From the NCBI RefSeq assembly GCF_017348835.2, contig NZ_CP071375.1: a DNA stretch of 64,000 nt, one strand, 5' to 3'. Below are positions 40,788 to 46,269 of this stretch, piece after piece (within the stretch, counting starts at the first letter, position 1; each line of letters opens with the position of its first letter). The DNA is from Escherichia coli (GTDB lineage Bacteria; Pseudomonadota; Gammaproteobacteria; Enterobacterales; Enterobacteriaceae). Under the pieces are notes generated by a model. It saw only the letters and a list, made by a program, of their open reading frames with translations, did no database searches and had not been told where the DNA came from. Both the position numbers and the translations under genes were made by a program.

Positions 40788-41085
40788 TGCGCATTTGAAA
40801 CGCCTGCAACGGTGAATAGTAAGAGATTTAAGCCCCAGGGAGTGGGGCGGGAATGGTTTGCTAATGAATGATCCTGAACTTTATAATCTCCCGGCATAAT
40901 TTCCAGGGGATTATTTGAGAGAAATACACAAAAGTGAGTTTTAACAAAGGTATTTATCAGGCCATAAATGTGACCTGCTTCGGATAAAAAAGATTCAGTA
41001 TCGAAAAACCAATGATACTCTTGCTGATGGTTACCAACAGTAATTAAGATGTGATTTGTTTTTCCGTAATCGCAAAAATATTGCC

Positions 41086-41496
41086 ATGACCATAAAAGAA
41101 AAATTCTCACAAAAATATCCCCATGCTTCCTTTTGTACTTTTGGCGATTCAGCCGCGTTGGCCGATCACCTCGCAACGTTGATTGCGACTGGTGTTAAAA
41201 CAGCTTCCTGTGGTTCGCTGGCGGGATGTATTGAAGACAACGCATTTCCGATGATTGGTGAGTATAAGATTGTAGAAAATAGCCGTGGTGAGCCTGTATG
41301 TGTTATCAGAGTGATTGGCCTGCATTTACTGCGCTTTTCTGATGTCACCGCAGAGCTTGCCCGTAAGGAAGGTGAAGGTGACCTCAGTCTTGAATATTGG
41401 CGTAATGAACACCGTCGTTTTTTCCAGGCAGAAGGAAGCTATTCACCAGAAATGGACGTTATCTTTGAAGAATATGCCCTTATTGACGTTGTATAG
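41086..41496 (+). CDS. ASCH-domain protein
   Basis: ORF 41056..41496; start moved to MTIKEKFSQKYP; small beta-barrel ASCH-like sequence. Confidence 0.6.
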   Translation: MTIKEKFSQKYPHASFCTFGDSAALADHLATLIATGVKTASCGSLAGCIEDNAFPMIGEYKIVENSRGEPVCVIRVIGLHLLRFSDVTAELARKEGEGDLSLEYWRNEHRRFFQAEGSYSPEMDVIFEEYALIDVV

Positions 41497-41746
41497 ATAA
41501 CTATTTATCTACACGAAATAAGCTCACAAACATAAAATATCGCTAATTTTGTTTATTTTGCTGTTTTTTACGTGATGAATGTCACACTTATTATTGCTGC
41601 CCGTTTTGTCCATATTTATAACCATATTTTTAATAGCTGCCTGAAATAGAGCTGTTTATTCTGCATAAAAATATTCGAAAATTCTTATTCTCTCCAGCGC
41701 GCTAATTTGGGCGAACACTTCCTGACTACCCTGCAATGAGGCTGAA

Positions 41747-42733
41747 ATGATGAATAAACGTTTTGTTATCAATATGGTGTCTTCGCTGTTATTAGGCGCT
41801 GCGCTAATTTCTGCGCCGCTCCAGGCAGCGGAAAAAGTCGTGGTGAATATTTCTAAAGTCGATGGTATGCCGTGGTTTAATCGCATGGGCGAAGGTGTGG
41901 TTGAGGCGGGTAAAGCCTTTGGTGTTAATGCCTCACAGGTGGGGCCTTCAAGTACTGATGCTCCGCAACAGGTTAAAATTATTGAGGATTTAATCGCCCG
42001 TAAGGTTAATGCAATTACTATCGTGCCAAACGATGCCAACGTGCTGGAACCGGTATTCAAAAAAGCGCGAGATGCCGGAATTGTGGTTCTGACCAACGAA
42101 TCCCCCGGTCAGCCAAGTGCTAACTGGGATATCGAAATCATTGATAACGAAAAATTTGCCGCTGAATATGTTGAGCATATGGCGAAACGCATGGGTGGCA
42201 AGGGCGGCTATGTGATTTACGTGGGTAGTTTGACCGTGCCGCAGCATAACTTATGGGCTGACTTGCTGGTGAAATACCAGAAAGAGCATTACCCGGATAT
42301 GCATGAAGTTACCCGCCGCATGCCGGTTGCCGAGAGTGTGGATGACTCACGTCGTACCACACTGGACCTGATGAAAACCTATCCTGACTTGAAAGCGGTT
42401 GTCTCCTTTGGTTCAAACGGTCCGATTGGCGCGGGACGTGCGGTGAAAGAGAAACGGGCGAAAAATAAAGTCGCAGTCTATGGCATGATGATCCCTTCAC
42501 AGGCGGCATCACTGATTAAAAGTGGTGATATCACCGAAGGGATTACTTACGATCCGGCCTCTGCAGGTTACGCACTCGCAGCCGTCGCCAGCACATTGCT
42601 GAAGGGTGAAGAGATCAAGCCTGGATTAGAAATGCAGAATCTGGGTAAGGCCGACGTAGATATGGATAAGCGAATTATCCGTTTCCATAAGGTATTACTG
42701 GTCAACAAAGACAATATCGACTCACTTTATTAA
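41747..42733 (+). CDS. Periplasmic substrate-binding protein, LsrB-like (autoinducer-2/ribose-binding family)
   Basis: ORF 41747..42733; signal peptide; C-terminus VLLVNKDNIDSLY resembles LsrB ...FNKDNIDKYDF. Confidence 0.8.
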   Translation: MMNKRFVINMVSSLLLGAALISAPLQAAEKVVVNISKVDGMPWFNRMGEGVVEAGKAFGVNASQVGPSSTDAPQQVKIIEDLIARKVNAITIVPNDANVLEPVFKKARDAGIVVLTNESPGQPSANWDIEIIDNEKFAAEYVEHMAKRMGGKGGYVIYVGSLTVPQHNLWADLLVKYQKEHYPDMHEVTRRMPVAESVDDSRRTTLDLMKTYPDLKAVVSFGSNGPIGAGRAVKEKRAKNKVAVYGMMIPSQAASLIKSGDITEGITYDPASAGYALAAVASTLLKGEEIKPGLEMQNLGKADVDMDKRIIRFHKVLLVNKDNIDSLY

Positions 42734-44266: not shown

Positions 44267-45230
44267 ACTGAAAAAACGCCATGAATTCTGGCTGGCATTA
44301 CTGATTGTGGTGCTGTTTGTTGGCCTTGCCTGGCGCAGCGACGAGTTTCTGACATTCGGTAATTTGTACGATCTCGCCAATAACTATGCCATGTTGACTA
44401 TTCTCGCCTGTGGTTTGTTTGTGGTGTTGATTTCCGGTGGAATTGATATTTCGTTTCCAGCTATGACCATCATTGCGCAATACGGCATGGTGCTGTTGCT
44501 GCAAAAAATTGGTGGCAACTTCGCTGTCGCGTTTGCACTGGCGGGCTGCATCGGCATTTTACTTGGCTTAATTAACGCCTTACTGGTTAATCGCCTACGG
44601 GTGCCTTCTATCATCATCACTATCTCGACGCTGAATATTTTCTATGGCCTGCTGTTATGGTTGAGTAAAGGTGTGTGGCTGTACGACTTTCCGCCGTGGT
44701 TTGAGCAGGGGGTTATGTTGTTCAAGTACACCGATGCTGATGGCTATGACTATGGCCTTGGTCTGCCGCTGATCGCCATGATTACGGTGGTGCTGCTAAC
44801 AGCGTTTATCATGAATTTCACCAGTGTAGGGCGCAAAATTTATGCCCTTGGCGGGAACCGCGAATCAGCCAGTCGCATCGGCTTTAGCGTGCTGAAACTG
44901 CAACTTTTCGTCTATGGCTATATGGGATTGATGTCTGGCGCTGCGGGTGTAGTGCAGTCGTGGACGGTGATGACTGTCGCCCCCGATTCTCTTCTGGGTT
45001 ATGAGCTGACAGTACTGGCTGCGGTGGTGCTTGGCGGCACTAGTTTGCTCGGCGGGCACGGCACGTTAACCGGTACTTTGCTCGGCGTGGTGTTGTTGGC
45101 AGTGATGCAAAACGGGCTAAATTTATTGGGAGTCTCGTCTTACTGGCAAACATTGATCACCGGCATCATCATCGTTGCCAGCATTAGTGCCACGGCGTGG
45201 AGTCAGCATCAGAACCGGAGTCTGCTATGA
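44259..45230 (+). CDS. ABC transporter permease (LsrC/RbsC-like)
   Basis: ORF 44259..45230; polytopic; overlaps the ATPase stop. Confidence 0.85.
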   Translation: MAELKKRHEFWLALLIVVLFVGLAWRSDEFLTFGNLYDLANNYAMLTILACGLFVVLISGGIDISFPAMTIIAQYGMVLLLQKIGGNFAVAFALAGCIGILLGLINALLVNRLRVPSIIITISTLNIFYGLLLWLSKGVWLYDFPPWFEQGVMLFKYTDADGYDYGLGLPLIAMITVVLLTAFIMNFTSVGRKIYALGGNRESASRIGFSVLKLQLFVYGYMGLMSGAAGVVQSWTVMTVAPDSLLGYELTVLAAVVLGGTSLLGGHGTLTGTLLGVVLLAVMQNGLNLLGVSSYWQTLITGIIIVASISATAWSQHQNRSLL

Positions 45231-46183
45231 AAAAATCGTGGTGTAATAACGTTGAGTTTTACTTGATCGGCCTGCTGGTGCTAACTGTTGCCGCGTTCAG
45301 CATTACTATGCCGGAGATTTTCTGGTCGATAAGTAATTTCCAGTCCGTCGCTTCGCAAATGCCCGTGCTGGGCATTCTGGCGTTGGCTATGGCGGTGACC
45401 ATGCTTTGCGGTGGCATTAACTTGTCAATTATAGCCACTGCTAACGCCTGTTCACTGGTGATGGCGTGGGTGGCGACTCAGTATCCACCGGGTATTGCTA
45501 CGGTTGTCGCTACGTTACTGGCGGGCGCTGGCGCGGCGGTGATAATCGGTTTATGTAACGGCGTATTGATTGCTGGTATTCGAGTGTCGCCAATTCTTGC
45601 AACGCTTGGGATGATGACGTTGCTCAAAGGGATAAATATTCTGGTGACAGGTGGTAGCGCCATTGCCAATTATCCCTCATGGGTGCTGTGGTTGAATCAT
45701 GCGCAATGGTTCGGTATTCCGCTACCGATGTGGTTGTTTGCCGCAGTGGCACTGGGGCTGTGGATATTGCTGGAAAAAACGCCGCTCGGTAAAGCCATTT
45801 ACCTGATTGGGTCTAACGAACGAGCAACACTTTACTCCGGCATTAACACTCGTCGGGTGCTGATTTGGGTTTATGTCATTTCCGCCTTGCTTTGTGCGGT
45901 AGCGGCATTTTTGATGATGTCGAAACTCAACTCGGCTAAGGCCTCTTATGGCGAATCGTACTTGCTGGTGTCAATCCTCGCGGCAGTACTCGGCGGGGTT
46001 AATCCGGACGGCGGCAGCGGGCGGATAATTGGTATGGTGCTGGCGCTGTTTCTTCTGCAAATTATTGAAAGCGGCTTCAATATTCTCGGTATAAGCCCCT
46101 ACCTGACGATGGCCTTATGGGGAACGTTGCTGCTCTGTTTCATTCAGGCTCGCGGCATGTTGGGGCTGGATCGGGTGGTTTAA
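45227..46183 (+). CDS. ABC transporter permease (LsrD/RbsC-like)
   Basis: ORF 45197..46183; start moved to ATG 45227 (ATGA overlap with upstream stop). Confidence 0.85.
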   Translation: MKKSWCNNVEFYLIGLLVLTVAAFSITMPEIFWSISNFQSVASQMPVLGILALAMAVTMLCGGINLSIIATANACSLVMAWVATQYPPGIATVVATLLAGAGAAVIIGLCNGVLIAGIRVSPILATLGMMTLLKGINILVTGGSAIANYPSWVLWLNHAQWFGIPLPMWLFAAVALGLWILLEKTPLGKAIYLIGSNERATLYSGINTRRVLIWVYVISALLCAVAAFLMMSKLNSAKASYGESYLLVSILAAVLGGVNPDGGSGRIIGMVLALFLLQIIESGFNILGISPYLTMALWGTLLLCFIQARGMLGLDRVV

Positions 46184-46269
46184 ATATTGGCTATATTCAA
46201 TGGACGCGTTTTGCCGCGATGACATATCAGGCGTCGCCAAATACACATAGCTAATCAGGAGTAAACACA

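Follow-up and report, generated by a model that had tools for sequence, protein, structure and literature searches.

Aau, named for accessory L-arabinose uptake and the closest described system, is the product of Z0415-Z0419 in EHEC, where L-arabinose is the sole inducer of these genes, acting via AraC, and where they confer a 10-100-fold competitive advantage in the mouse gut (Cottam et al. 2024, Nat Commun, PMC11127945). AraC dependence of the aau promoter was shown experimentally in EHEC, and the published Paau reporter spans ~300 bp upstream of aauA (PMC11127945). According to Cottam et al. 2025 (PMC12307932), the binding protein AauA was crystallised with D-ribulose (PDB 9I1M), and the Kd is 1.98 µM for D-ribulose and 598 µM for L-arabinose; in the available portion of that paper, binding assays are described for D-glucose, L-arabinose, D-ribose and D-ribulose. 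Kinase activity of AraB on D-ribulose and araBAD dependence are likewise published, as are D-ribulose transport and an aau-dependent growth benefit that needs AraB in EHEC ZAP193 (Cottam et al.).

Two other systems bear comparison. Rbl of Citrobacter rodentium (ROD_24811-61; RblABCD plus RblK) is an analogous D-ribulose ABC importer according to Cottam et al., and by their description it has its own D-ribulokinase and is D-ribulose-responsive, whereas Aau has neither and uses AraC and AraB. Lsr, like Aau, is a CUT2 importer with a PF13407 substrate-binding protein (SBP), a fused ATPase and two PF02653 permeases, but it serves AI-2 under LsrR control from lsrACDB-FG with divergent lsrRK, in contrast to the AraC control and D-ribulose substrate of Aau.

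Organization and distribution of the locus

We analysed a 64,000-nucleotide stretch of Escherichia coli DNA (contig NZ_CP071375.1; hereafter the window), in which, as an initial annotation had described, a gene for an ASCH-domain protein and four genes for an ABC importer separate yahJ (39405-40787) from yahK (46270-47319); the importer is of the CUT2 type. This locus is the known Aau importer (Z0415-Z0419, EHEC O-island 17) with a neighbouring ASCH gene, and is already characterised. We are nearly certain that 41747-46183 contains aauABCD, four genes for an AraC-controlled, AraB-dependent importer that binds D-ribulose tightly and L-arabinose weakly, with the ASCH gene standing apart. Locus, position and gene order are those of EHEC Aau, from which the window differs in strain and at 1 of 328 AauA residues. 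What the present analysis contributes is this near-identity to Aau, together with the finding that the ATPase gene is uninterrupted, the frequency of the locus among E. coli genomes and the scars that deletions have left at the empty site.

The neighbours are yahI/yahJ on one side and yahK/yahL on the other, and in O157:H7 the aau genes lie in identical order, likewise between yahJ and yahK. The best match to the window locus is the pig isolate PE164 (100%), and the full interval is present in 2211-2213 of 5426 complete E. coli genomes (41%), O157:H7 among them. The annotation's statement that yahJ and yahK adjoin in K-12 is accurate, the MG1655 spacer being only 376 bp, with the interval absent. 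G+C content is 39-42% in the ASCH gene, 47-53% in the transporter genes and 55-58% in the flanks. The operon consists of genes for an SBP, an ATPase and two permeases, without a cognate kinase or regulator gene.

The binding protein AauA

aauA (Z0415; 41747-42733, plus strand) encodes the periplasmic D-ribulose/L-arabinose binding protein, assigned on PF13407 and on near-identity to 9I1M, with which the product is identical at 327 of 328 positions over its full length (E 3.8e-214); the single difference is D202 in the window for V in 9I1M. The D-ribulose contacts published for AauA, namely K37, W43, E118, H167, E196 and S223 (PMC12307932), are all six kept. The protein carries a Sec signal peptide with its cleavage end between LQA and AEK, and its C-terminal end is ...VLLVNKDNIDSLY. 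Among other solved structures, the Klebsiella pneumoniae structural-genomics target 3D02 scores 628 bits over residues 27-328 (E 3.7e-188) and is an AauA ortholog; its deposited name, 'putative LacI-type transcriptional regulator', gives no functional assignment, and a literature search pairing 3D02 with LsrB found nothing. Next among solved relatives comes 5BRA, a paralogue at greater distance (186 bits) with an entry name that mentions ribose.

The binding protein thus falls with a characterised sugar transporter (AauA, 9I1M), an outcome that the initial annotation had itself named as grounds for abandoning an AI-2 importer, and its fallback suggestion of a pentose was sound, as D-ribulose and L-arabinose are both pentoses. 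It is quite unlikely, in our estimate, that this CUT2 importer serves chiefly some other sugar (L-ribulose, xylulose, rhamnose or ribose), with D-ribulose merely the best ligand tested. The ligand panel described in the available part of PMC12307932 is small, aau expression is induced by L-arabinose and not by D-ribulose (Cottam et al.), and 5BRA, the nearest non-orthologous relative in the PDB, is described with ribose as substrate; among named NCBIfam models, moreover, the rhamnose-binding model RhaS (TIGR02637) is the top match to AauA. Its score of 136.7 bits is, however, far under the cutoff of 342.25, and a Kd of ~2 µM together with a thermal shift of 16 degrees for D-ribulose is typical of a cognate ligand, D-ribose and L-arabinose giving only 2 degrees (PMC12307932). 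The growth benefit from D-ribulose, furthermore, needs aau (Cottam et al.).

Relationship to the AI-2 receptor LsrB

The binding protein had initially been likened to LsrB, and AI-2 or a related furanosyl signal had been offered as its possible substrate. At the level of the family the likeness stands: LsrB and RhaS are the nearest named models, and LsrB and AauA belong to a common subgroup, alike at LsrB positions K35 and D/E116 and in an NK[DE]NI motif at the C-terminus. It does not extend to identity as an AI-2 receptor, and import of AI-2 or a furanosyl signal is not supported. AauA is 28% identical to E. coli LsrB by BLASTP and scores 111.4 bits against the LsrB equivalog model NF011937, for which the cutoff is 384, and the RhaS model outscores the LsrB model. 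Read off the BLASTP alignment, only one of the six LsrB contacts to AI-2 is identical (K35, aligned with K37 of AauA), the others being changed from D116 to E118, D166 to Q166, Q167 to H167, P220 to G222 and A222 to N224. Proven AI-2 receptors, by comparison, have >63% identity to LsrB and all six contact residues, and substitutions of D166 and A222 mark a group that does not bind AI-2 (Pereira et al., as summarised in PMC3386761); AauA is substituted at both of these marker positions. The gene order, B-A-C-D in Lsr lettering, differs from lsrACDB of K-12, and no homologues of lsrK, lsrR, lsrF or lsrG adjoin the locus, as had been noted from the start; in the flanks, no kinase, repressor, aldolase or isomerase gene is adjacent.

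It is accordingly hard to credit that Aau imports AI-2 (R-THMF) or a kindred furanosyl signal independently of lsr, even though AauA has LsrB among its closest named relatives and matches the PDB entry 5gta at 88 bits, K37 and E118 of AauA line up with K35 and D116 of LsrB, and RefSeq/PGAP names AauA 'autoinducer 2 ABC transporter substrate-binding protein'. Chemical likeness also favours such a substrate, R-THMF being, like alpha-D-ribulofuranose, a hydroxylated furanose with five carbons. By term search, 'autoinducer' is unmentioned in the 2024 Aau paper (PMC11127945) and 'LsrB' in the 2025 paper (PMC12307932), so neither study seems to have assayed AauA for AI-2 binding. Beyond the low identity, the changed contacts, the model scores and the gene context, the aau promoter responds to L-arabinose through AraC (PMC11127945), and D-ribulose fills the pocket in 9I1M (PMC12307932). 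We would give only the slimmest chance to a combined scenario, in which AauA also binds the R-THMF form of AI-2 and arabinose-induced Aau would serve as an lsr-independent means of AI-2 removal in the gut. The RefSeq 'autoinducer 2' name on the AauA family is probably wrong, and will go on producing the same false lead.

The ATPase and permease genes

aauB (Z0416-7; 42782-44266, plus strand) starts at an ATG, with an alternative TTG at 42767, and encodes an intact, fused two-domain CUT2-family ABC ATPase with a Walker A motif GQNGCGKS and a signature LSGGN; its best NCBIfam matches, AraG, YtfR, XylG and LsrA, are all under their equivalog cutoffs. In O157:H7 F7508, codon 87 of aauB (nt 259) is changed from CAG to TAG, whereas the window retains CAG; a stop SNP at nt 259 is reported for TUV93-0 (PMC11127945). 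The gene is therefore intact in the window and in ZAP193 but interrupted in EDL933/TUV93-0-type O157:H7. Downstream on the same strand, aauC (Z0418; 44259-45230) overlaps aauB by 8 bp and aauD (Z0419; 45227-46183) overlaps aauC at ATGA, both encoding PF02653 permeases. The locus has the make-up expected of a CUT2 importer, a PF13407 SBP, two ABC_tran domains on one polypeptide and permeases of the PF02653 family, and orthologous cassettes have the same content (PF13407, two copies of PF00005 and two of PF02653). In the gap between aauA and aauB, a consensus match to a G+C-rich hairpin, TCGGGGCGAAAGCCCCGA, followed by a T-rich tail (42743-42760, plus strand), may be an intra-operon attenuator, such consensus matches being not above chance in the region.

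A candidate CRP/AraC module upstream of aauA

Upstream of aauA, on the plus strand, we find a candidate CRP site, CGTGAtgaatgTCACA (41571-41586; 9 of 10 consensus positions), a candidate AraC site made up of direct half-sites I1, TGCCCGTTTTGTCCATA, and I2, TAACCATATTTTTAATA, 4 nt apart (41598-41635), and, by inspection, a candidate -10 hexamer TATTCT (41657-41662). The CRP site begins 27 nt ahead of I1, compared with 29 nt in K-12 ParaBAD, and the -10 candidate lies 21 nt past I2, compared with 20 nt, so that the two promoters have a common layout of CRP site, 11-13 nt, I1 (17 nt), 4 nt, I2 (17 nt), 20-21 nt and -10. The I1-I2 pair agrees with the consensus at 15 of 20 positions (two mismatches in I1, three in I2) and is equalled in 2 of 300 shuffles; the candidate aau half-sites are weaker than those of ParaBAD, which agree at 17 of 20.

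The upstream regions of aauA from E. coli, Atlantibacter and Yersinia are too diverged for a MAFFT alignment to be informative, and a scan for paired half-sites plus a CRP site was used in its place, with recovery of the true K-12 ParaBAD site as its control; the L011 locus, where the gene call is 375 aa, was left out. The same CRP/I1-I2 arrangement is found upstream of aauA in four further loci (L005, L007, L009 and L010; Atlantibacter, Yersinia and two others), the best half-site pair of each aau locus is equalled in 0-2 of 300 shuffles, and a TAnnnT hexamer stands at the matching offset in four of the five. In one locus the aau cassette sits 3 kb from araA/araB. Lone AraC half-sites are no rarer than chance over the whole window (34 matches, 44.6 expected), and for this reason what counts is the combination of paired half-sites with a CRP site, their spacing and conservation across loci. 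Scanning the island for generic sigma-70 promoters and for terminators gave nothing above the shuffled expectation, which for sigma-70 is expected of an activator-dependent promoter. AraC, and with it CRP, most likely acts directly at the sites predicted at 41571-41635.

The ASCH gene

The ASCH-domain gene (41086-41496, plus strand; ATG start, with the ORF lister starting at a TTG at 41056) encodes a COG4405/YhfF-like protein of 136 aa, named 'ASCH domain-containing protein' by PGAP in O157:H7. PF04266 is precomputed on ASCH proteins 96-98% identical to it and on the L011 product, relatives in the PDB are 1t62 (E 4.6e-19) and 3s9x (an ASCH-domain entry, E 1.8e-15), and the protein has no match in NCBIfam.

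The gene adjoins aauABCD on the identical strand and occurs in complete E. coli genomes in the same number as aau, 2213 each, which would fit a single functional unit in which the ASCH protein processes the transported compound. We regard this as very improbable, since a 250-bp spacer with the candidate CRP/AraC module and promoter parts the gene from aauA, the published Paau reporter used ~300 bp upstream of aauA as insert (PMC11127945), and in K-12 the ASCH gene and aau were lost by separate deletions. Each also occurs without the other: aauABCD lacks an ASCH gene beside it at four other loci (Atlantibacter, Yersinia and two more), and ASCH genes are found without aau, in unrelated neighbourhoods, in Escherichia sp. 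E2593, Yersinia canariae and Kosakonia. The ASCH gene is a separate, co-inherited neighbour outside the transporter that travels with aau in E. coli only; as a part of the transporter it was rejected on context evidence.

Deletion scars in empty-site genomes

The 376-bp K-12 spacer is not empty. It retains the segment corresponding to window positions 40788-40848, a 72-bp remnant of the 3' end of the ASCH gene (41447-41518, 92% identity), ~60 bp from the spacer between ASCH and aauA, in diverged form, and the final ~72 bp of aauD (46112 onward), the last of these remaining in SCU-176 and Escherichia sp. E2593 as well. Two segments are missing. The first, 40849-41446, covers the promoter and the greater part of the ASCH gene; its boundaries are alike in K-12 and SCU-176, and it is intact in Escherichia sp. 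E2593. The second, 41594-46109 (left edge approximate), takes in the AraC sites, the promoter, aauABC and most of aauD and is deleted in K-12-type genomes and E2593, with the right junction at 46110-46112 in each of the three genomes that have the empty site. In K-12 a 22-bp filler separates the yahJ-proximal segment from the ASCH remnant, and it aligns to the deleted ASCH region no better than the null (score 18, null 18.2). As K-12 and the unclassified Escherichia strain keep remnants of the ASCH gene and/or aauD, the empty site reflects an old deletion.

Discussion

In the mechanism that we favour, periplasmic AauA, with its tight binding of alpha-D-ribulofuranose and weak binding of L-arabinose, hands its ligand on to the permeases AauC and AauD, and the fused ATPase AauB powers import. 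The operon is turned on by L-arabinose-bound AraC, most likely directly, via the candidate ParaBAD-like CRP/I1-I2 module, and the L-ribulokinase AraB phosphorylates the imported D-ribulose for entry into the pentose phosphate pathway.

To describe aau as an O-island specific to pathogens and gained by horizontal transfer is too simple for what is a presence/absence polymorphism of long standing, because the empty site of K-12 is a deletion scar common to an unclassified Escherichia strain; 41% of complete genomes carry aau. As already published, Aau shows an accessory transporter using a core regulon (AraC and AraB) for a new sugar. Judged by the predicted sites, the cassette appears to carry its own CRP/AraC I1-I2 module across Enterobacterales loci, which would explain how a transporter without a regulator could work as soon as it enters another host.

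The yahJ-yahK interval encodes the Aau transporter

Between yahJ (amidohydrolase; 39405-40787) and yahK (46270-47319) we find an ASCH-domain gene of 136 aa (41086-41496) followed by genes for a periplasmic binding protein of 328 aa (aauA, 41747-42733; C-terminus ...VLLVNKDNIDSLY), a fused ABC ATPase of 494 aa (aauB, 42782-44266) and two permeases (aauC, 44259-45230; aauD, 45227-46183), with these identities supported by NCBIfam and by RefSeq annotation of the O157:H7 counterpart locus. The ORF list, the NCBIfam assignments and a yahJ-yahK gap of 376 bp in K-12 MG1655 bear out the initial annotation of an island that carries an ASCH gene and a four-gene importer and is absent from K-12. 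Megablast recovers the whole interval in 2211-2213 of 5426 complete E. coli genomes, with edge-only matches in the remainder. G+C content is 55-58% in the flanks, 39-42% in the ASCH gene and 47-53% in the transporter, and the 8-bp aauB/aauC and ATGA aauC/aauD overlaps are as expected of a co-translated operon. The 48-bp aauA-aauB gap contains a G+C-rich hairpin followed by T-rich sequence (42743-42760), which, judged from its sequence, could reduce the output of the membrane components compared with that of the binding protein. In the flank, the yahG-yahI gap holds 2.9 copies of a 93-bp unit at 94% identity (38128-38395), and the REP-like palindromes inside that unit (GCCGGATGCGGCGTGAACGCCTTATCCGGCCTAC) identify it as a BIME-type array.

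The transporter is one already known in mechanistic detail, Aau. A PDB sequence search with the binding protein returns 9I1M (327 of 328 residues, E = 3.8e-214), the sole difference being D202 in the window versus V in 9I1M, an entry that comes from Cottam et al., Nat Commun 2025 (PMC12307932). PMC11127945 and PMC12307932 name the locus Aau, the 'accessory L-arabinose uptake' system, and place it in EHEC O-island 17, with Z0415 as the binding protein, Z0416-7 as the ATPase and Z0418/Z0419 as the permeases; they further describe EHEC growth on D-ribulose as conditional on L-arabinose, the inducer of aau and araBAD, with D-ribulose phosphorylated by AraB. The aau promoter requires AraC and has L-arabinose as its only inducer, and an aau deletion mutant is outcompeted 10-100-fold in streptomycin-treated mice (PMC11127945). 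PMC12307932 gives AauA Kd values of 1.98 µM for D-ribulose and 598 µM for L-arabinose, and a crystal structure in which α-D-ribulose is sandwiched by W43 and H167 and hydrogen-bonded by K37, E118, E196 and S223. All six of these contacts are kept in the AauA of the window. A pentose, offered by the initial annotation as one possible substrate, is the alternative that holds, with the near-identical 9I1M protein binding D-ribulose. The window aauB is intact, whereas that of O157:H7 F7508 (L002:3583-5067) carries a CAG-to-TAG change at codon 87, nt 259, the inactivating premature stop reported for TUV93-0 (PMC11127945).

AauA is distinct from the AI-2 receptor LsrB

The initial annotation had read the island as an LsrB/LsrACD-like importer, possibly of AI-2; the likeness stands at subfamily level, with LsrB and RhaS the named families nearest AauA and NK[DE]NI at the C-termini of both LsrB and AauA, but the AI-2 assignment does not. 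Relative to K-12 LsrB, AauA is 28% identical over 294 residues, and only one of six AI-2 contacts is identical in the alignment: K35 is K37 in AauA, D116 is E118, D166 is Q166, Q167 is H167, P220 is G222 and A222 is N224. According to the summary in PMC3386761 of the criterion of Pereira et al., proven AI-2 receptors are more than 63% identical to LsrB and keep all six contacts, whereas substitutions of D166 and A222 mark a non-AI-2 group; AauA belongs with this latter group on all counts. AauA scores 111 bits with the NCBIfam LsrB equivalog model, whose cutoff is 384, and 137 bits with the rhamnose-binding RhaS model, a higher score that is also far under that model's own cutoff; the gene order and neighbors of lsr are also unlike those of aau, which runs with the binding protein first (B-A-C-D). 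Judged by its binding site, AauA is unlikely to cross-bind AI-2, and our literature search found no report of AI-2 binding assayed on AauA. In RefSeq/PGAP, AauA orthologues carry the name 'autoinducer 2 ABC transporter substrate-binding protein' in many Enterobacterales, among them E. coli, Klebsiella, Atlantibacter, Providencia and Yersinia. That label looks misleading, and systematically so, because the D-ribulose complex is solved and the LsrB tests fail. In an E. coli-like contig with aau (L011:3532-3688), the gene call for aauA is 375 aa versus 328, and two copies of the motif TGCAATGAGGCTGAAA, separated by 141 bp, suggest that a short duplication spans the aauA start.

A predicted AraC/CRP promoter accompanies aau across genera

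In a term search, the 2024 Aau paper gave no hit for a binding site, araI, CRP or a consensus (PMC11127945). A consensus scan of the 300-420 bp 5' of aauA gives a candidate CRP site (CGTGAtgaatgTCACA, 41571-41586) and two direct candidate AraC half-sites (TAGC-N7-TCCATA) 21 bp apart, I1 (TGCCCGTTTTGTCCATA, 41598-41614) and I2 (TAACCATATTTTTAATA, 41619-41635), followed by a candidate -10 hexamer, TATTCT (41657-41662). The same scan of the K-12 araC-araB intergenic region finds the true ParaBAD elements at near-equal spacing: CRP-site start to I1 is 29 nt in ParaBAD versus 27 nt in the window, and I2 to the -10 hexamer is 20 versus 21 nt. The predicted module (window 41571-41662) recurs upstream of aauA in Atlantibacter hermannii, Yersinia mollaretii and two further loci (L005:7709-7773, L007:7743-7807, L009:7812-7876, L010:7743-7808), in each case on the coding strand and with the CRP site starting 27-28 nt before I1; a TAnnnT hexamer at the equivalent offset is seen in four of the five aau loci. 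A lone AraC half-site is no rarer than expected by chance; the best pair is matched by 0-2 of 300 shuffles per locus.

The four orthologous cassettes occupy unrelated chromosomal sites, the site differing in each genus examined, and their upstream DNA is too diverged for alignment. In one metagenomic enterobacterial contig (L009:6962-7659 and 3153-5714), aau adjoins IS1 transposase fragments within the rpoS-mutS region; in another (L010:15364-16984), araA/araB lie ~3 kb from the cassette. From these predicted sites, AraC and CRP probably act directly on the aau promoter, and the cassette probably brings this promoter along, which would explain the absence of a regulator of its own in aau.

The ASCH gene is separate from Aau, and empty sites are deletion derivatives

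The ASCH gene belongs to PF04266/COG4405 (YhfF-like), and its solved relatives 1t62 and 3s9x have entry names without functional assignment. Complete E. coli genomes carry ASCH and aau in equal number (2213 each). The gene is not part of Aau, because the promoter region intervenes between it and aauA, it is absent beside aau in the four other loci, it occurs without aau in Escherichia sp. E2593, Yersinia canariae and Kosakonia, in unrelated neighborhoods, and its loss in K-12 is a deletion separate from that of aau. The ASCH enzyme YqfB hydrolyzes N4-acylcytosine derivatives, and the adjoining yahJ encodes a cytosine-deaminase-like amidohydrolase (NCBIfam); this chemistry and this neighbor may offer a lead to the role of the ASCH gene.

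Still present in the K-12 spacer (L001:1589-1964) are window 40788-40848, the final 72 bp of the ASCH gene including its stop (41447-41518, 92% identity), ~60 bp alignable with the ASCH-aauA spacer up to the CRP half-site (score 47.5; shuffles, mean 27.7, sd 4.2, maximum 42) and the 3'-terminal ~72 bp of aauD, beginning at 46112, a fragment that PGAP calls a partial pseudogene. The ASCH deletion junction in K-12 (L001:1650-1671) contains a 22-bp filler, AATCTGAATATGAGTGTGTCGG, with no counterpart detectable in the window. SCU-176 (L003) has junctions identical to those of K-12 in flanks ~95% identical to the window, while in the unclassified E2593 (L014:8412-8647) an intact ASCH gene (90% identity) runs directly into the aauD remnant (last ~72 bp; junction 46110). 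The interval is found as three alleles: full (window), aau-deleted (E2593) and ASCH-plus-aau-deleted (K-12 and SCU-176).

The empty sites are deletion derivatives and not the pre-insertion state, and the aauD junction common to all three empty-site genomes (window 46110-46112) suggests that the deletion behind them is old. PMC11127945 and PMC12307932 call the locus horizontally acquired, and acquisition at some time is consistent with the lower G+C content and the differing positions in other genera; within Escherichia, retention versus loss is the better description of the polymorphism.
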